From Synechococcus sp. (GTDB taxonomy: Bacteria > Cyanobacteriota > Cyanobacteriia > PCC-6307 > Cyanobiaceae), in assembly GCA_047285535.1 (NCBI GenBank), contig JBJBDC010000001.1, positions 1,824,136 to 1,888,135 of the forward strand: a stretch of DNA of 64,000 nt. Direction: 5' to 3'. The number at the start of each line of letters is the position of its first letter. Position 1 is the stretch's first letter. The translations under genes and the position numbers were made by a program. A model generated the notes under the pieces. That model was not told the origin of the DNA, did no database searches, and saw only the letters and a list, made by a program, of their open reading frames with translations. Shown here piece after piece: positions 1 to 8,450 of this stretch.

Positions 1-213
1 GCTATTGAGGACACCGACCGGTAGCAATACACCTGTGCCGTTAACGTCAACCGGCACTCTCGACAGAACCGACCAGAGCGTCGCCATCCCAGCCAACCCC
101 AATCCGAACAGCAAAGTTAGCCGTAGCGGAGGAGTGAGAACACGGACTGCATTTGTATTTTCGCCAGCCTGATGGCGCTTGCGTAGCGCTCGTGTTTCAA
201 AGATCTGCTTCAT
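1..213 (-). CDS. NHLP bacteriocin-system secretion protein (HlyD-family periplasmic adaptor), 5' part only; runs off the window edge
   Basis: Not in the ORF track. Manual translation from ATG at 213 gives MKQIFETRALRKRHQAGENTNAVRVLTPPLRLTLLFGLGLAGMATLWSVLSRVPVDVNGTGVLLPVGVLNS, open to base 1. It has one TM helix followed by the W-S-x-x-x-R-(V/I)-P-x-x-V-x-G-x-G-V-L motif typical of NHLP secretion adaptors. Its start overlaps the TolC-family stop (ATGA). Confidence 0.8.
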   Translation of the reverse strand, partial: MKQIFETRALRKRHQAGENTNAVRVLTPPLRLTLLFGLGLAGMATLWSVLSRVPVDVNGTGVLLPVGVLNS

Positions 214-1790
214 CGCAATCGCCTCTCCTGTTCATTAACCAACTGATCAGTCTCTCCAGGCCAGGTTGCGGAATAGCGATAAAGCTCAGCCACAGCGCTG
301 TTGTAACTCTTGATTGCCAATGACAGTTGTGTTGATGACTGACCCAGCTGTTGAATGGTCTGAACAAGCGAAGTGATACTCGTCACGCCGACATCGAATC
401 GTGCAAGTGCCGCCTCCTGGGCAAGCTGTGCACTTTTATAGGCACGTCTAGCACTATGAACAGCAATATCTGCAGACCGATACTTACCGTAACTAGAGCG
501 CACCTGCTCAACAGCTTTCAACTTATTGAGCTCGGCTACAGATTTATTCTTAGCCTCCAGAGAGTATGCACTCTGTGATTGAGCTGCTTGAACTCCTCCG
601 TCAAACATCAACCAGGAAAAGCCAAGTCCTACATTGGTATCCCAGCGACGTGTTTCAGCAAGATAATCTGATGTATTGAGGCCAGGCTGCCCGCTCAGTA
701 CGCCACTTTGATACGAAAGATTTCCGGATCCGATCAAAGAAATTTTTGGCAGATATGCACGGATAGCAGCTAGGCCCCGCCACTTTGCTTGTTGAGCTGC
801 TGCCAAACTTGATAAAATTTCCTCCCTCATTTCAATGGCGCGAGTGATAGTATCACTCAAGGATAGTTTCCACTCGGGATACAAGCGAGCTTTTTCCGAT
901 GGAATAGCAAGCTCATCACTTTTCATACCCAAGCTCCTGGATAAAACGGCTGCTTCTGAAAGAAAAGATTGCGTGTAATTAATTAGAGAATTCAATTGAG
1001 TATAAAGCTGAGTTTCTGTTTGCGCGAGATCTTGGACGGAAACCATGAGAATGCCATACTGTGCCTGAATAAAATCAAGCTGGCGTCGGTTAATGTCATA
1101 GATTTCCTGAAAATCGTCAATAAGCTGTCTAGTACTTTGTAGAGCGTAATAGGCTGTTTGAATCTCAAGGATTAAATTTCTAGCACTTACAATAAAGAGT
1201 AATTTTTGCTCTCTCAGCGCCTCTGAGGCAGCATTAATGGATGGCTGCCGCGTTGGGTCGATTGCATCCCAAGAAAAGCTAAGGCCCGGCTGAAATGTCG
1301 CATTACTAGAATAAGTGGTGATCTGAGGAGATGTAGTCGTAGTGACCTGCGAAGATTCAGGCAGCGAAGAGAGTGAGCCTTCCTCTGTAGCAGTCGCTGC
1401 CAGATCAGAAGTAAAAGACTGGGGTCGGTATAACCTCTGAACAAAAGTTTGTGCTGTGTAACCAACGAATGGTGAGCCATTGGCAAAGCGAAGATTTGGA
1501 TACCAGCGTCTCTGTGCAGCGACAAGCTGCCACTCATACTGTTGGATCGTTCGAAAGGCAGAAACCAGCTCAGGATTGTTCTTAATACCAAGAGCTATTG
1601 CCTCGTCGAGCGTGAGACTCTTTGAAGAATTCAAGACTATGGACTGAAGGTTTTGAAGTCTTCGCAAAAGGGCATCTGCCTCCAAATCAGCTGAATCTTC
1701 TTTCGCCAATGCACTTTTGGGGAAAGAGTTGGCAATTATCGCCAAGCAGAGCGCAGCGCCAAGATAATTCTTAAGCAGCCAACGTGACAA
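210..1790 (-). CDS. TolC-family outer membrane efflux protein
   Basis: Signal peptide, 'LTLDEAIALGIKNNPEL' motif, two OEP repeats (RRWYPNL / RAYLPKISL...FDGG), C-terminal 'YNSAVAELYR'. Confidence 0.88.
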   Translation of the reverse strand: MSRWLLKNYLGAALCLAIIANSFPKSALAKEDSADLEADALLRRLQNLQSIVLNSSKSLTLDEAIALGIKNNPELVSAFRTIQQYEWQLVAAQRRWYPNLRFANGSPFVGYTAQTFVQRLYRPQSFTSDLAATATEEGSLSSLPESSQVTTTTSPQITTYSSNATFQPGLSFSWDAIDPTRQPSINAASEALREQKLLFIVSARNLILEIQTAYYALQSTRQLIDDFQEIYDINRRQLDFIQAQYGILMVSVQDLAQTETQLYTQLNSLINYTQSFLSEAAVLSRSLGMKSDELAIPSEKARLYPEWKLSLSDTITRAIEMREEILSSLAAAQQAKWRGLAAIRAYLPKISLIGSGNLSYQSGVLSGQPGLNTSDYLAETRRWDTNVGLGFSWLMFDGGVQAAQSQSAYSLEAKNKSVAELNKLKAVEQVRSSYGKYRSADIAVHSARRAYKSAQLAQEAALARFDVGVTSITSLVQTIQQLGQSSTQLSLAIKSYNSAVAELYRYSATWPGETDQLVNEQERRLR

Positions 1791-2126
1791 CGTGAAAAAT
1801 CAACGCACTGTATAAAAACACATTTCACTGGCATGCGCAATCCTATTAATAAGCATCAATTTCCCAACAACTGCCTCAAGAGGGAAAACCCCCAAACTGG
1901 CATCGTCAAGACGCAAATTCTTCACAACGACCTTACAGATCACAAGCGAACACAATCCCTAGCTAAAACCAAAACGAAAAACATTACAGATTACCCCTAA
2001 AACCATACCTACCCAGGCTAAAAGCTTGCACAGAATAAAACAAAATTCAAAGCGAAGACCCTAGATTGTTTCATAGCAATCCGAGAAAATGATGAGAATG
2101 CAACCTCTTGCCAACCCTTTGAGGAT

Positions 2127-2477
2127 ATTTCCAATTCCAAGCCACTTATCAAGAGAAGCCATAACCCTTGCCAACACTGACAATGACAACACAGTCGCAC
2201 TGCTTGCAAAGCCAAAAGAAGCCTCATGCAAGGCAGGGTTTATTACATCCAATGGCATAACAGTCCATTACTCGACGGAAGTGAAATAGTTCCTCCAACA
2301 ACGACCCCTAACTTTTACCCACAACGCTGCAAAATGGACAAGATGGCAAACAGGTAGTTAGACGAAGAGGCCATGCAAACTGTTACCGCAGGTGGTCCAT
2401 GCCAAACCACCAAAAACACAGCAGGCAGCTCTCACACTTACATGCCTTCAGCCACCAGCGCCGCAAGCAAGTGCTGA
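2127..2477 (+). pseudogene. Decayed paralog of the NHLP precursor gene at 2916..3266
   Basis: Colinear similarity over the full precursor length: AITLANTDNDNTVALLAKPKEASCKAGFITSNGITVHY, then VPPTT, then LDEEAMQTVTAGG-PCQTTKNTAGSSHTYMPSATSAASKC*. Start codon ATG has become ATT (2127), there are two frameshifts, and an in-frame TAG lies at 2355-2357. Confidence 0.85.
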
Positions 2478-2915
2478 TCAAACACTGACTAAAAAATCAG
2501 ATTCACTCAAAACAGCAAAACACAAGCCCGAACAAGAGCAAAATCACATCCCAAACTTGTGCCAATCCACGAAACAGTTACCCGAAATCATTAAGAGTAT
2601 ATGCAAAATCCTTAGCTCCTATCAAGCAATTTTCAAAGTTCAAAGGTCAGAGCGCATTTGACACAAGTTCAAAGGAAAAGCAATTGCGATCTTCTCTCAG
2701 AAGATGTATGCTGAGATTGCTAATTACGAGGACAAGCATAAATTCTCATCATTCAAACAAATAGATTCAACTCTTCTTACATCAACAAGTTTACAATTGC
2801 AATTGTCAGGGAGACCCTCCATTGGGCTAGGCCAGTGGCAGAAAACCAAAGCATTGCTATGGTAGGTAGAGTTTCCTAAGCGCAGGGAACTCTTTATAAA
2901 CAGATTTAAGAAGTA

Positions 2916-3266
2916 ATGTCCGACTTCAAGCTCATTCAAAAGGCAACAGCTTTGGCAAGCACCGATGCTGACTACAAAGCTGAATTGCTTTCCAACACTA
3001 AAGAAGCATTAAGAAAGGTCGGGTTCACTGCACCCGAAGGCGTAACAGTCCATTTTGTCGAGGAAGGTACAAATGTTCCTCCAGCAACAAGTTCCGACAT
3101 TTATTTGCAACTTGGCAAAGTGGACAATACGGCAACCATGGAATTAGACGAAGAGGCTCTGCAAGCGGTTGCTGCAGGTGGGACATGCCAATCAACAGCA
3201 AGCACAGCAGGCACAATTCCCTCTTGCGTCTCCTCAGCTAGTAGTGCCAGTTCAAAGTGCCAATGA
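2916..3266 (+). CDS. NHLP (nitrile hydratase-like leader peptide) RiPP precursor with double-glycine cleavage site
   Basis: Leader: KATALASTDADYKAELLSNTKEALRKVGFTAPEGVTVHFVEE...ELDEEALQAVAAGG. 27-aa core: TCQSTASTAGTIPSCVSSASSASSKCQ (16/27 Cys/Ser/Thr). Lies directly upstream of a YcaO gene. Confidence 0.93.
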   Translation: MSDFKLIQKATALASTDADYKAELLSNTKEALRKVGFTAPEGVTVHFVEEGTNVPPATSSDIYLQLGKVDNTATMELDEEALQAVAAGGTCQSTASTAGTIPSCVSSASSASSKCQ

Positions 3267-3285
3267 TCATCAGCGTCTAGACATT

Positions 3286-3320
3286 CAAGAAGACTCTAGA
3301 TTTTTATCAGAGTCTTCTTG
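3286..3320 (+). promoter_or_regulatory. Stem-loop between precursor and cyclodehydratase (putative mRNA stabiliser or partial attenuator)
   Basis: Perfect 12-bp inverted repeat CAAGAAGACTCT (3286-3297) / AGAGTCTTCTTG (3309-3320), with no U-tract following. Confidence 0.6.
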
Positions 3321-3352
3321 CATTCATAATAGCAATCAATAATTTACCATCA

Positions 3353-5605
3353 ATGAGGATGCTAACCATACCCAAATTTGCTCCACACATCACCGTAACT
3401 TTCATTCCTGACGACTCCGTTGTCATCTCAGGCAGCGGATTCCAGAGTCGCCTTAAATCCCCTTACTGGCAGACATTATATCCCCTTATCAATGGTTCCA
3501 ATCAGCTAGACGACATTGTTGATATTGCAACTTCAGAAAATCCAGATTGGAGTACAACAGATCTCTACAAGTTTTTTTTCCGTCTCCACAAGAAAAACTT
3601 TCTGGTAGAAACAAATCAAGAGCGTTCACACCTTGATATTTTCGCTTTAGCGGTGAGTGAACAAAAACCGATTAGCCATGGCTTGCAGATACCAACATTA
3701 AGGATTCACCAAATCGGAGCCATCGATATTGAACCAATCAAAGCACTGATGAGCTGCACTGGGGTCAAGTTAAGCGAATCAGATAACGAACAAGCTCTCG
3801 ATATTTACCTCACAGACGATTACTTACGCCAAGAGCTAAAGGAAGTTAATCAAATCCATCTTAAGGAATCATCCGAATGGATTTTGATGCAGCTCAACGG
3901 CTTAGAGCCCATGCTCGGACCATGGTTCCACCCTGAGGAAGGAGCTTGCTGGGAGTGCCTGGCATCACGATTAAGAATGAACCGGGATCTCACAGAATTC
4001 CTGGGAGCTCACAGACAAGAGGGATACCCTTTCCCTGAACGTGTTGAGGTTCCTGGCTCGGCGTTACACATCACAGGAATACTTATCGAGCAAATTGCCT
4101 TGGCAACCTCGAAAGGTAAATCGAATATCGATGAAGCAATCTTGTCATGGAACACGTATCGATCCACGGCAACAACCCACACTGTGGTCAAACGGCCCCA
4201 ATGCAACGAATGCGGAAGCGAGCAACAGATCCATCTGCCAAAGCCGATCAACTTGAGCTCGGCACCAAGACGGCAAGCCAGCGATGCCGGCTACCGAAGC
4301 ATGACATCCGAGCAAGTCTTTGAAACTTTTAAATATCATCTGAGCCCCATTTCAGGCGTCGTCAAGCATCTTGAACGCATCACAAATCCCACCGATCCGA
4401 TTCAACACGTTTATGTCTCAGGTCAAAACTTCGCAACGTCTTATCGAAATATTCAGGACCTATCAAAGAATCTGCGTAGTTCATCCTGTGGTAAAGGCAC
4501 CACAGATATCCAAGCCAAGGTGAGTGGGCTTTGCGAAGCCATCGAGCGCTACAGCGGAGTGTTCCGAGGAGACGAGTATCGGATTCTATCCTCTCTAGAT
4601 CATCTAGGTGAAACAGGCATTCACCCAAATAGTATTCTGCTAATTAGCGATCAGCAGTACGAAAATAGGCACGAATGGAATGCTCGAAATAACAAGTTTG
4701 CCCTCGTTTGCGAACCATTCGATCCAACTGCTGAGCTGGAATGGTCGCCAGTTTGGTCGGTGACAAAGCAATGCACCAAATGGCTACCTACAGGTCATTT
4801 GTATTTCAACTATCCAATCAAAAACAATCAATTTACTATGATGCCATGCTCCAACGGCGCGTCCACTGGAGCGAGCCTTGAAGAAGCTGTTTTGCAGGGC
4901 TTTCTTGAAGTTGTTGAAAGGGATGCTTTTGCTATGTGGTGGTATCCCCGTACGCAACAGCCTCAGGTTGATCTTTCGAGTTACGACCTGCCTTATGTGC
5001 GCGCCATGGAAAAACGAATGGATGAACTGAACAGAGAACTTTGGGTTCTCGACATTACAAGTGATCTTGGGATCCCCGTTTTTGTGGCCTTTTCAAGAGA
5101 GACAACAGGCCATCGAGAAAATATCGTGTTTGCTCCAGGTGCGCACTTTGACCCCTGCATTGCGCTGTTGAGAGCTCTAACCGAGCTAAACCAAATGCTG
5201 CCTGGCGTGCAACCCGGACTAAACGGCCACGAATATGCGTTTGACGACCCCCATTGTGTTGAGTGGTGGACAACAGCAACGATTGATAATCAACCATACA
5301 TCTGCCCAAATAAAAACGCGGCAATGAGCCGGAGAGTGAATTACGACGTACCACAGACAACAGACTTGCTCGAAGATATTGATATTGCCCGTTCACTCGT
5401 TGAGTCGCGAGGAATGGAATTCATCATTCATAATCAAACAAGGCCTGACATCAAAATGCCAGTGGCTAAAGTGATCGTTCCTGGAATGAGACATTTTTGG
5501 GCTCGCTTCGCTCCCGGTCGATTATTCAATATCCCTGTAGAACTAGGAAGATTACAGATAACCCCCAAAGAGAGTGAACTGAATCCAATCTCGGTTTTCA
5601 TTTAA
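3353..5605 (+). CDS. Fused E1-like (ThiF/C) + YcaO (D) cyclodehydratase, TOMM/PatD-like, azoline-forming
   Basis: N-terminal RRE-like region; CWECL and CNECG Zn pairs; YcaO ATP-binding motifs SCGKG, EAIERYSG, SNGASTG, EVVERD; 'KVIVPGMRHFWARFAPGRL'; C-terminal ELNPISVFI. Confidence 0.95.
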   Translation: MRMLTIPKFAPHITVTFIPDDSVVISGSGFQSRLKSPYWQTLYPLINGSNQLDDIVDIATSENPDWSTTDLYKFFFRLHKKNFLVETNQERSHLDIFALAVSEQKPISHGLQIPTLRIHQIGAIDIEPIKALMSCTGVKLSESDNEQALDIYLTDDYLRQELKEVNQIHLKESSEWILMQLNGLEPMLGPWFHPEEGACWECLASRLRMNRDLTEFLGAHRQEGYPFPERVEVPGSALHITGILIEQIALATSKGKSNIDEAILSWNTYRSTATTHTVVKRPQCNECGSEQQIHLPKPINLSSAPRRQASDAGYRSMTSEQVFETFKYHLSPISGVVKHLERITNPTDPIQHVYVSGQNFATSYRNIQDLSKNLRSSSCGKGTTDIQAKVSGLCEAIERYSGVFRGDEYRILSSLDHLGETGIHPNSILLISDQQYENRHEWNARNNKFALVCEPFDPTAELEWSPVWSVTKQCTKWLPTGHLYFNYPIKNNQFTMMPCSNGASTGASLEEAVLQGFLEVVERDAFAMWWYPRTQQPQVDLSSYDLPYVRAMEKRMDELNRELWVLDITSDLGIPVFVAFSRETTGHRENIVFAPGAHFDPCIALLRALTELNQMLPGVQPGLNGHEYAFDDPHCVEWWTTATIDNQPYICPNKNAAMSRRVNYDVPQTTDLLEDIDIARSLVESRGMEFIIHNQTRPDIKMPVAKVIVPGMRHFWARFAPGRLFNIPVELGRLQITPKESELNPISVFI

Positions 5606-7008
5606 TGAAAGAATCCATACATCTTCAACTACTAGCAACTCAACCCTATTCGTCTGTCATATCTGATAATGGCGTTGAAATCAACACCCCAACGAGACGA
5701 TTAAAATACAAAACCAAAAACAAAGCACTAGTCGAAGCATTTGGAAACATTTTCGACCAAAAAAAATCACTTCACGCTGCAATTCAGTTACTCACCGAGA
5801 GAGACCCTGATCAGCTTAGATCATTATTTTTAGTGCTGAAACGGCTGTACCAAGAAAATGGAATAGCCATTTTCTACCACCTCGACCAGATACACGCAGG
5901 AACCATACTGCCGATGGCGCCGATGCCATTAATCACCGACTTCTCACCATTAAGTGGAACAATCGGTCTGGCACGTTCTGCCAAACTTCATCGCCACCAA
6001 GAAGTGTTAGTTCTCGAAGCACCACTGGCTAGAGCTCGCTTAGAGATTCAACAAACCGCTCTTGTCGTCAAAATCAGCCAATGGATGGCTCAAGCAACTG
6101 TAAAGGTCGAAGAGTCTCTCCTAGCCCAATTACTTGTTGCCACAAATCTAGGAGATCTAATTACAGGGGACAATCCATTACTCTCCAAACCAGCTCCTGA
6201 GCTTGATGGATGGGGTTCCCATGAGCTCTTCTTTCAATTTCGATCGCGGCACGGATTCCACACATATCCATCCGGCGCCCTATTTCTAGCTGCTGGTCAT
6301 CGAGAACCACCCCCAGCCAACAGGATTAGAAGCGAGTCAGAAAAACGGATCCCCCTAAACAAACCAAAATCAATCAAAAGCGGCACGCTCGAGTCAGTCA
6401 TTGCAGCAAGGGTATCAACCAGCAGTTATAGGAATGAACAACCCGCACTCAATCAGTTAAGTGAACTGTTGTGGAGAACGATGCGTCAAACCGGAGAATT
6501 CTCTATGACAATTGAGGACAAGACAGGAAAATCTCACATTTTTCCACTGAAAAGTCGCCCGGTTCCATCCGGCGGTTCAGTACATGAAATCGATGCCTAT
6601 CTTTTAGTCAATGCACCAGGTTCTCTACAGAAAGGACTCTGGCGATATGATGACAAGAATCACGAACTTGTGATGGTGACAACACTCAATAATGACACCG
6701 AATTAATCCTCCTTCATGGACAGATCTCAGCAGGATTAGAGAAGCTGCCACCCATGATGCTGATATTTTCCGCACGATTTGATCGAATGATGTGGAAGTA
6801 CTCAGCACTTCCGTTAGCCGCTATCCTTAAACATGTCGGAGTTCTCTATGAAATTTTTTACCTAGTAGCTACAGACATGCGCTTAGGAGTCCGCGGATTG
6901 GGAAGTGGTGAATCAAGGGCATTCTCTCAGGCTATCCAAGTTCATCCCGCTGTTGAGTCAAGCGTTGGAGAAATGCTAATTGGTCTCCCTGCACAACACA
7001 TAGCATGA
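5605..7008 (+). CDS. SagB/ThcOx-family FMN-dependent azoline dehydrogenase
   Basis: RPVPSGG motif, catalytic K-Y motif (RMMWKYS), nitroreductase-fold C-terminus, extended N-terminal region; TAATG overlap with the YcaO gene. Confidence 0.92.
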   Translation: MKESIHLQLLATQPYSSVISDNGVEINTPTRRLKYKTKNKALVEAFGNIFDQKKSLHAAIQLLTERDPDQLRSLFLVLKRLYQENGIAIFYHLDQIHAGTILPMAPMPLITDFSPLSGTIGLARSAKLHRHQEVLVLEAPLARARLEIQQTALVVKISQWMAQATVKVEESLLAQLLVATNLGDLITGDNPLLSKPAPELDGWGSHELFFQFRSRHGFHTYPSGALFLAAGHREPPPANRIRSESEKRIPLNKPKSIKSGTLESVIAARVSTSSYRNEQPALNQLSELLWRTMRQTGEFSMTIEDKTGKSHIFPLKSRPVPSGGSVHEIDAYLLVNAPGSLQKGLWRYDDKNHELVMVTTLNNDTELILLHGQISAGLEKLPPMMLIFSARFDRMMWKYSALPLAAILKHVGVLYEIFYLVATDMRLGVRGLGSGESRAFSQAIQVHPAVESSVGEMLIGLPAQHIA

Positions 7009-8450
7009 CGATGCAACAGACAATCTCGAATGAATTAATCAGATTTCATGAGGTTCTTGCATCCAATTCTCACGTAAAGAGATTTGCGGAAAAATGGCTA
7101 TCCGACCCATCATTTCGAGAGGCCTTTCGAATCAACCCCAAACAAACTCTCTCCCAACATCACATCAAGCTTGATGAAAACGAAATCGTTCTCATCAGCG
7201 AGGGGAAACCCTCATCGGCTCTTGAACACCTGGAAGAAATTAAGCGTCAAAAGGAAATCTGGACTCATCACTTCTATAGCCAGACGTGCGCACCTATCGA
7301 TGAATCATGGCTGAGCTGGCGCAAACGCCAAGTTTCGCGGCAGATATTCGACCTTGGACCTCAACATGCGCTCTCAAACATCCACTCATCTCTGACTGTT
7401 GAACTAAACAAAGGTTGCAGTGTCGGCTGCTGGTTCTGCGCTTTAAGCCCTGACAAAAACACTATTCCGATGTTGTATGACTCTGGAGGGGAAGCTCGGT
7501 TCTCCACCTTGATTCGCGCGATGCAAAAAGAGCTTGGTCCTGCGGTGAAAAGCGGATTCCTCTATTGGGGAAGCGAGCCGATGGACAACCCTGATTACGA
7601 GCGTTATTGCCTTGATTTTCATTCCATCACAGGTGTCTTTCCTCCCACAACAACAGCACTACCCCATAAAGACCCAGAGCGTACGCGTCGATTTTTAAAA
7701 CTTGCTGATAAGCACAATGCCTGGCTGAGCCGATTCAGCGTTGCTTCGACAAGTCTCATGAATCGCATCCACTCTCTTTTCACAGCCGAGGAACTCGCCA
7801 CAACCGAGTGCCTGTCCCTGAATGCTGAGAGTTCTTTCTCGTTTGGTGTAGGAGGTCGATACCGCGATTATCTAAAGAAGCACCCAGAGATCCTTCAAGA
7901 GCAAAAGCAGAAACTAAAAAATGCACCTTTTTACGAGGAGATCAAGGAACATCTAAATGAAGAAACGCATGCGCACGGCTCCATTGCCTGTGTAACAGGT
8001 TTCCTGGTTAATTTAGTAGATCAATCGATTGCATTGATTGCACCTACCCACGCTGATGATGAGCACCCTCTGGGATATATCACATTTTCCAAAGAAACCT
8101 TTTCGAGCAATAGTGAAATCGTCAGCACAATCAGAACTGTTGTAGAACGCGGCAGAATTCTGGCACTCCGAAACAAAGATATCTGCGCTTTTCCCTGCTA
8201 CATCAAATGGGACCAGGACAAATCCGACATTATTTTTCAGGGTAGGCTTGGTACCAAGATTCGAGCTAAAAGTCTTGGTAAAAAGCCTAATTTGAATAAA
8301 CTATGTACTCTACTCAGCCACGGCAACCATTCGAAGCAAAAGATAGTTTCATCCTTCCCCAAAGAAAAAGAATGGATCGAATCAGTCCTCCATCGCCTAT
8401 GGCTAATGGGTGTATTGAAAGAGCCTAGCCATGCTAAAACAACTCCATGA
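7005..8450 (+). CDS. Radical SAM peptide epimerase, PoyD/OspD (proteusin) family
   Basis: ELNKG-CSVGCWFC (CxxxCxxC, C138/142/145), GFLYWGSEPMDNPDYE, FPPTTTA, RFSV and SIACVTGFLVN match motifs I recall from PoyD-type epimerases. ATGA overlap with the dehydrogenase gene. Confidence 0.85.
   Translation: MTMQQTISNELIRFHEVLASNSHVKRFAEKWLSDPSFREAFRINPKQTLSQHHIKLDENEIVLISEGKPSSALEHLEEIKRQKEIWTHHFYSQTCAPIDESWLSWRKRQVSRQIFDLGPQHALSNIHSSLTVELNKGCSVGCWFCALSPDKNTIPMLYDSGGEARFSTLIRAMQKELGPAVKSGFLYWGSEPMDNPDYERYCLDFHSITGVFPPTTTALPHKDPERTRRFLKLADKHNAWLSRFSVASTSLMNRIHSLFTAEELATTECLSLNAESSFSFGVGGRYRDYLKKHPEILQEQKQKLKNAPFYEEIKEHLNEETHAHGSIACVTGFLVNLVDQSIALIAPTHADDEHPLGYITFSKETFSSNSEIVSTIRTVVERGRILALRNKDICAFPCYIKWDQDKSDIIFQGRLGTKIRAKSLGKKPNLNKLCTLLSHGNHSKQKIVSSFPKEKEWIESVLHRLWLMGVLKEPSHAKTTP

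Follow-up and report, generated by a model that had tools for sequence, protein, structure and literature searches.

A probable pseudogene of a second precursor in a nostatin A-type proteusin cluster of a marine Synechococcus

In the biosynthesis of RiPPs, the leader domain of the precursor peptide is bound by the modifying enzymes. Proteusins of the polytheonamide type combine an NHLP leader with the PoyD epimerase and a LanM-N-like dehydratase. For the precursor families of prochlorosins, birth-and-death evolution was described in earlier work. According to the available part of PMC10783134, the prochlorosin systems (procA/syncA) of marine picocyanobacteria have many precursors per enzyme set, with conserved leaders, variable cores and a copy number that varies among strains. 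YcaO/NHLP clusters, with a cytochrome P450 and nine putative precursors, are described there for two marine Synechococcus strains. The nostatin A cluster (nst) of Nostoc, in the available part of its description (PMC11583998), encodes the NHLP-leader precursor NstC, the cyclodehydratase NstD, the azoline oxidase NstE, the epimerase NstF, which resembles PoyD, the LanM-like dehydratase NstG and the B12-dependent radical SAM C-methyltransferase NstA; the core of nostatin A is made of Ser/Thr/Cys triplets. The word pseudogene has 0 occurrences in PMC10783134, the available part of the nostatin A account mentions no pseudogene (PMC11583998), and we found no account, in the open-access literature searched, of such a cluster with a decayed precursor.

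We analyzed a 64-kb stretch of Synechococcus DNA, further referred to as the window. The host genome consists of one 3.03-Mb contig, and the genes for psbD, phytoene desaturase and NDH-1 subunits within the window mark the host as a cyanobacterium. The precursor encoded by an intact gene at 2916–3266 (plus strand; Pfam/NCBIfam and the list of open reading frames) has 116 aa, an NHLP-type leader and a Cys/Ser/Thr-rich core, with AGG|T as the cleavage motif. This gene is followed on the same strand by genes for a fused leader-binding/YcaO cyclodehydratase (3353–5605; TIGR03604 229 bits, TIGR03882 108 bits), a SagB/ThcOx-type FMN dehydrogenase (5605–7008; Pfam/NCBIfam), a PoyD-type radical SAM peptide epimerase (7005–8450; TIGR04517 348.4 bits with the cut-off of 325) and a LanM N-terminal dehydratase domain that stands alone, without the cyclase part (8431–10836; DUF4135; positions 2–620 of the 932 positions of TIGR03897). 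The score of the latter protein, 293.3 bits, is below the cut-off of 304. The divergent export arm begins with the gene of a TolC-like outer-membrane protein (210–1790, minus strand; Pfam/NCBIfam) and continues on the minus strand to the left of the window (locus L016) with a HlyD-like gene, a C39-peptidase ABC transporter gene (L016 10599–12830, minus strand; 110.9 bits) and a second ABC transporter gene. The HlyD-like gene matches the model "NHLP bacteriocin system secretion protein" with 70 bits, below its cut-off. The whole cluster covers positions 1–10836 of the window and 8458–14114 of L016.

The same four enzyme types as in nst follow the precursor of the window (genes starting at 3353, 5605, 7005 and 8431), and the gene order is also the same if the letters from NstC to NstG are taken as the order, judging by the available part of PMC11583998. 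By eye, the core in the window and the nostatin A core given in that part (PMC11583998) agree in the pattern of Ser/Thr/Cys triplets, in the T-x-P-S-C at the centre of this pattern and in having a Cys close to the C-terminus. The hosts differ, a small marine cyanobacterium in the case of the window and, in the available part of PMC11583998, a Nostoc strain in the case of nst. No NstA-like B12-dependent radical SAM C-methyltransferase was found among the scanned cluster genes. The cluster matches a nostatin A-type azole-containing proteusin, the likeness being one of enzyme families, gene order and core pattern.

The assignment agrees with the proteusins in general in the NHLP-type leader, the PoyD-family enzyme scoring above the cut-off and the dehydratase-only LanM relative, and differs from them in that azole formation is added and the precursor is below the cut-off of TIGR03793. 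The intact precursor matches that model with 42.4 bits (E 4.6e-11, model positions 8–77 of 77) and does not reach the cut-off of 50.9; hence we call it NHLP-like and not a curated member of the family. Against NF033482, "thiocillin family RiPP", with its cut-off of 25, the C-terminal part of the precursor scores 25.3 bits. A GG-type cleavage motif, a modifiable core and a C39-peptidase ABC exporter encoded nearby are all present.

Precursor birth and death in prochlorosin systems had been named by an earlier reading of the window from sequence alone (the sequence-only reading) as a parallel to this locus. The parallel holds as an analogy; it does not hold as a description of the cluster, which consists of YcaO, SagB, PoyD-like epimerase and LanM-N genes. 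Assignment to the prochlorosin (ProcA/ProcM) system was rejected, given that the leader matches the NHLP and nitrile hydratase alpha models and a cyclase is absent from the LanM-like protein. In prochlorosins the leaders are of the Nif11 type and ProcM is a complete lanthipeptide synthetase, whereas the window has an NHLP-type leader, a cyclase-less LanM-like protein and azole and epimerase enzymes. The YcaO/NHLP clusters of the two Synechococcus strains share with the window the marine picocyanobacterial host, NHLP/thiocillin-like precursors in tandem, YcaO, a SagB-like enzyme and a LanM-N-like dehydratase (available part of PMC10783134). In contrast to the window, they have a P450, and the available part of PMC10783134 names no PoyD-type epimerase. 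If the precursors described in that source are those found by us in two genomes of the genus (G036 and G024), they are only 26–41% identical to the precursor of the window.

The GC content of the cluster is 0.44–0.47, compared with about 0.54 further on, and DUF2079 genes border it on both sides. Around this island we observed three paralogous genes of DUF2079 membrane proteins (window 10915–12567, minus strand; L016 3447–5138 and 6934–8355, plus strand) along with a PMT-family glycosyltransferase gene; the island may have been inserted into, or captured within, an array of DUF2079 genes.

Between the TolC-like gene and the precursor gene lies a gap of about 1.1 kb (1791–2915) with short open reading frames only. 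The sequence-only reading had proposed that pieces in two reading frames of this gap reconstruct a full-length paralog of the precursor. A tblastn search with the 116-aa precursor against the 64-kb window bore this out: apart from the self match, it yields two pieces in two frames on the plus strand with the summed E of 1.3e-19. The first piece (2146–2280, frame 1) corresponds to precursor residues 6–50 with 44% identity, and the second one (2289–2474, frame 3) to residues 54–115 with 52% identity and one internal TAG. Further upstream, codons 1–7 read in frame 3 from 2127 give ISNSKPL where the intact precursor has MSDFKLI. The resulting segment, 2127–2477, is 351 nt long, exactly as the intact gene. 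The identities in the core were counted again on the tblastn alignment and number 13 of 26 without gaps, as in the sequence-only reading, and the pairing of LDEEAMQTVTAGG with LDEEALQAVAAGG also stands as quoted there. The cleavage motif in the relic is AGG|P instead of AGG|T in the intact precursor.

The similarity was compared with several kinds of background. The BLOSUM62 local score of the relic is 155 for the best frame and 245 for the two top frames together. In 1000 dinucleotide-preserving shuffles the means were 28.1 and 52.1 and the maxima 54 and 76, respectively (z about 29 and about 32), so that 0 of 1000 shuffles reached, or even came near, the observed scores. The maxima over 616 other 401-nt segments of the window, taken on both strands, were 54 and 86. 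A profile built from ten family members matches the relic pieces with 42.3 bits (E 8.8e-14) and 28.0 bits (E 2.4e-9), and the intact precursor with 200.5 bits. Since shuffles, window segments and the family profile all separate the relic, chance can be excluded as the source of the similarity. The relic pieces match no NCBIfam model at E ≤ 0.01. The best unrelated tblastn match within the 64 kb (12197–12298, minus strand; E 0.031) lies out of frame within a DUF2079 gene and was taken as a chance match of low complexity. On this and the following evidence we regard segment 2127–2477 (plus strand) as very probably a non-functional relic, that is, the pseudogene of a second precursor gene that formerly stood in tandem upstream of the gene at 2916–3266.

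Four lesions distinguish the relic from the intact gene, and all of them were found in the DNA alignment and in the sequence itself, in agreement with the sequence-only reading. The start codon ATG of the intact gene (at 2916) is replaced by ATT at 2127–2129. Four extra nucleotides at 2148–2151 (tblastn and DNA alignment) produce the first frameshift, with the net effect of +1, by which the homologous frame passes from frame 3 (2127–2147) to frame 1 (from about 2146). The relic lacks a single nucleotide between positions 2271 and 2272 (tblastn and DNA alignment); this second frameshift returns the homologous frame to frame 3, and frame 1 itself meets a TAG at 2287–2289. Finally, an in-frame TAG at 2355–2357 stands opposite GAA at 3141–3143, which encodes the family-invariant Glu76 (alignments and the count of invariant residues). 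The stop codon of the relic, TGA at 2475–2477, comes one codon earlier than that of the intact gene.

We then considered whether the lesions exist in environmental DNA. Four sequencing runs contain the whole stretch and may be its source, and three runs of another study, labelled as marine metagenome, contain 31–47% of the sampled words. The one RNA run listed contains a fraction of only 0.04 of these words. In the likely source run (X2), a single contig with the depth of about 204 covers 1800–3400 with 0 differences. Contigs from the three other-study runs (X5, X6 and X7) cover 2095–2404, 2238–2388, 2129–2279 and 2384–2559 with 0 other letters and 0 gaps, and taken together extend over all four lesions. 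Over 1800–3400, variants were listed at 2776 and 2866 only, both outside the relic. The support from X5, X6 and X7 consists of assembled contigs of depth 2–8 and not of raw reads, and all three runs come from one study. The lesions are real in environmental DNA and are not sequencing errors; the support is good, short of raw-read proof. The sequence-only reading had asked for sequencing errors to be excluded with raw reads, and the exclusion achieved here is by contigs.

These data also bear on the suggestion that the segment is a functional second precursor gene, its lesions being either errors of sequencing or assembly or else bypassed by programmed frameshifting and stop-codon read-through. 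We give this suggestion practically no chance. The full-length colinearity with the intact gene is the only point in its favour, and is countered by the same sequence occurring across all the lesions in the contigs of three runs from another study, by the presence of four separate lesions of three different kinds, by the change of 16 of the 35 family-invariant residues, and by the result of the search of 1600–3500 against Rfam, where no family matches at E ≤ 1.

The shorter open reading frames in the gap have to be considered separately. The reading frame at 2089–2289 (plus strand, 66 aa), which the sequence-only reading had cited as the only fragment captured by the list of open reading frames, is indeed in that list; tblastn identifies it as a by-product of the frameshifts, formed by a new N-terminus and the equivalent of leader residues 6–50, without a core. 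The residual frame at 2373–2477 (plus strand, 34 aa; the list of open reading frames, tblastn and the count of invariant residues) consists of eight leader residues ending in GG and a decayed core of 26 residues. It had been said to keep both the GG site and the core. The GG site is kept, and from the core that is kept the family-invariant P102, S103 and C104 are gone.

Could one of these frames still be functional, the 34-aa one as a mini-precursor with a short leader or the 66-aa one as a leader-only NHLP fragment? Both begin with ATG, the 34-aa frame has TAGG followed by a family-like core of 26 residues that contains Cys, Ser and Thr and ends in KC, and the cluster includes the gene of a C39-peptidase ABC transporter. 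Against this, the eight residues left of the leader lack the family-conserved NHLP leader domain, the core has lost A95 and S109 along with the three invariant residues listed above, neither piece reaches E ≤ 0.01 with an NCBIfam model, and the GAGG located 2 nt before the ATG at 2373 is the coding sequence of a conserved DEE. We consider a retained function of either frame very improbable. As far as can be told from the sequence, the relic would not be translatable into a peptide with both leader and core: the 34-aa frame would give a core without the central Cys, and the 66-aa frame a partial leader and no core. The intact gene at 2916–3266 would then be the sole usable substrate gene of the cluster.

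Differences between the relic and the intact gene are distributed almost evenly over codon positions 1, 2 and 3 (0.355, 0.271 and 0.393, respectively), whereas the ratio of differences at position 3 to those at position 2 ranges from 2.2 to 7.7 among ten pairs of intact genes. The pairwise Nei–Gojobori ω between the relic and the intact gene is 0.47 (dN 0.36, dS 0.78), compared with 0.13–0.26 in seven intact pairs with unsaturated dS. This argument alone is not decisive, as precursor cores evolve fast also when functional. A pairwise ω of 0.47 is also below 1, which means that some of the divergence built up under constraint.

The relic keeps 19 of the 35 residues that are invariant in the family. 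The invariant positions were defined from the alignment of ten members, which did not include the precursor copies from two related metagenomic loci, L015 and L014 (copies are numbered p1, p2 and so on). The first three copies of L015 (p1–p3) and the first copy of L014 keep 33–35 of the 35 residues; L015 p4 and p5 keep 28 each. Copies p2 and p3 of L014 are intact but divergent and keep only 16 and 18 invariant positions, and therefore a low count alone is no proof of a dead gene. In the relic, the central Pro-Ser-Cys of the core has turned into His-Thr-Tyr, Glu76 into a stop, and the core altogether lacks A95, P102, S103, C104 and S109. The base composition of the relic (A 0.34, G 0.19) is shifted from that of the intact gene (A 0.305, G 0.23) toward its A/C-rich flanks. 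In the maximum-likelihood tree of 18 rows, the relic falls within a clade of six rows together with the precursor of the window, three precursors from a large protein collection (P0002–P0004) and that of the metagenomic locus L012 (support 98/97). The amino-acid divergence of the relic is strongly accelerated; its end branch of 0.98 is about eight times as long as the median (0.12), the branch of the intact copy being 0.08. Constraint on the relic is relaxed, as seen from the flat codon profile, ω, the losses of invariant residues and the long branch.

Relatives of the precursor are rare among assembled genomes. When 61 relatives of the host were screened, 3 genomes matched the precursor, including that of the window itself, and two of the 36 other genomes of the same genus (G036 and G024) hold NHLP precursors, with 26–41% identity; in G036, five NHLP precursors stand in tandem. 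Out of 401 genomes of the class, 7 match, again with that of the window counted, and the other six score at most 34 bits. A search of species-representative contigs with the YcaO protein retrieved only two loci, with 37–40% identity. A large protein collection contains nine precursors (P0002–P0010) with 61–78% identity, all from metagenomic or run-assembly sources; P0002–P0004 are the nearest (71–78%), and the first of these, P0002 (78%), is encoded on a 21.8-kb contig. Among the metagenomic loci, L015 (a 2.17-Mb contig) carries a tandem array of five precursors, all intact, which lies directly upstream of YcaO (52%), SagB (33%) and radical SAM (50%) genes; the tandem array of L014 consists of three intact precursors. 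In L012, a single precursor and a YcaO gene (67% identity) were found, with 1.8 kb free of open reading frames on the upstream side, and in L013 the precursor directly follows an ABC transporter gene. Tandem arrays are common in this precursor family.

Some arrays show variation of their own. Copies 4 and 5 of L015 (both within 7003–8132) are intact and, at 28 of 35 invariant residues each, may be diverging toward new products or starting to decay; copy 4 lacks the first core Cys. In L014 (492–1279), the family-type precursor is followed by two more intact ones with divergent NHLP-like leaders and entirely different cores, and this cluster appears to hold two precursor subfamilies.

The sequence-only reading had suggested that the cluster once had tandem precursors and lost one of them, and that intact two-precursor versions should be sought in related genomes and metagenomes. 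Intact arrays were found in the metagenomic loci (n=5 in L015, n=3 in L014). Given these tandem arrays in related clusters, duplication followed by loss is well supported. The ancestor would have had at least two precursors in tandem, each composed of NHLP leader, GG site and Cys/Ser/Thr core; they would have been processed by the shared YcaO, SagB, PoyD-like and LanM-N enzymes, and their products cleaved and exported by the C39 ABC transporter of the divergent arm. One copy would then have lost its function and been under neutral drift for the greater part of the time elapsed since the duplication, and would make no product today. A rough estimate from dN and dS, obtained without a fitted model, puts the neutral share of that time at about two thirds; it assumes equal branches, ω near 0.18 for the intact branch and the same ω for the relic while it was functional.

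The exact position of the relic in the tree is unsure, the branch being very long: it is grouped with the precursor of the window and P0002 at 83/80, and within this group pairs with P0002 (89/82) and not with the window's own precursor. Read literally, the latter pairing would fit another history, in which the relic is the older resident precursor, displaced when a new precursor allele or a block of enzymes arrived by recombination or horizontal transfer. The whole cluster being a low-GC island (as compared with the rest of the window) between DUF2079 paralogs is compatible with such an event, as is the little similarity between the flanking DNA of the relic and that of the intact copy. Still, we hold displacement to be unlikely in a high degree: the relic branch is so long that its placement was flagged as insecure, the relic is most identical to the precursor of the window (48%, compared with 45% to P0002), and dS between the relic and the intact copy, 0.78, is lower than that between the orthologs of the window and L012, 1.5. 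Duplication in place is the more probable of the two histories.

Further copies and orthologs of the relic were looked for in several ways. A six-frame search with the family profile found no third remnant in positions 1–3400 and 10801–13000 of the window, 1–1900 of L012 and 1–5300 of L015, all other matches having E ≥ 0.98, and there is no further precursor copy in the genome of the window. With the C-terminal half of the relic as the query (TAG taken as X), 0 of 33 candidates scored at E ≤ 0.01 and no intact ortholog of the relic was found, which is weak evidence. Segment 1791–2915 of the window has no nucleotide match at E ≤ 0.01 in eight related loci (L004, L005 and L010–L015).

The intact precursor gene is followed by a stem-loop with a 15-bp stem (3286–3320, plus strand), located between this gene and the YcaO gene. 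Its energy is −21.3 kcal/mol (z −3.95), and 0 of 200 shuffles were as stable. Comparable hairpins are found 3' of the precursors in L012, L014 (p1) and L015 (p1, p3 and p5). No hairpin was found 3' of the relic (−3.8 kcal/mol over 80 nt; z −0.77). Most precursors of the close family, including copies inside the L015 array, have a hairpin of 9–17 bp of their own within about 30 nt of the 3'-end, and the sequences of these hairpins vary among loci. They probably stabilize or attenuate the transcript. A scan for promoters and terminators yielded five promoter-like sites with 2.4 ± 1.8 expected and two terminator-like sites with 2.3 expected, none of them informative.

The upstream region has peculiarities of composition. 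Segment 1791–2915 of the window is strongly strand-asymmetric, with A 0.34–0.40 and G 0.14–0.19, and so is the long ORF-free region upstream of the L012 precursor (1–1813), with A 0.38 and T 0.16. The two regions have no detectable nucleotide similarity to each other.

For a 3.0-Mb genome, it is somewhat unexpected that a relic with dS of about 0.78 to its paralog persists. A way to account for it would be that the relic was retained for some function, be it a 34-aa GG peptide for the C39 exporter, a silent donor cassette or a long transcribed A/C-rich regulatory leader. If true, this would explain both the survival of a dead gene at such dS in a 3-Mb genome and the ORF-free, A-rich upstream region of 1.8 kb in L012; we regard it as quite unlikely, and consider the relic an ordinary evolutionary remnant of gene duplication and loss.

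For annotation, the relic is a warning against taking the "intergenic" gap of 1.1 kb and its 66-aa and 34-aa open reading frames for new genes, when they are debris. A more useful by-product of this study is the identification of a nostatin A-type gene set in the genome of a marine picocyanobacterium; relatives of this set are found almost only in metagenomes. The relic itself is a concrete and dated case of the turnover of precursor genes outside the lanthipeptides, in a proteusin/azole RiPP cluster, a class with few known products, and shows that tandem arrays of precursors not only grow but also shrink.
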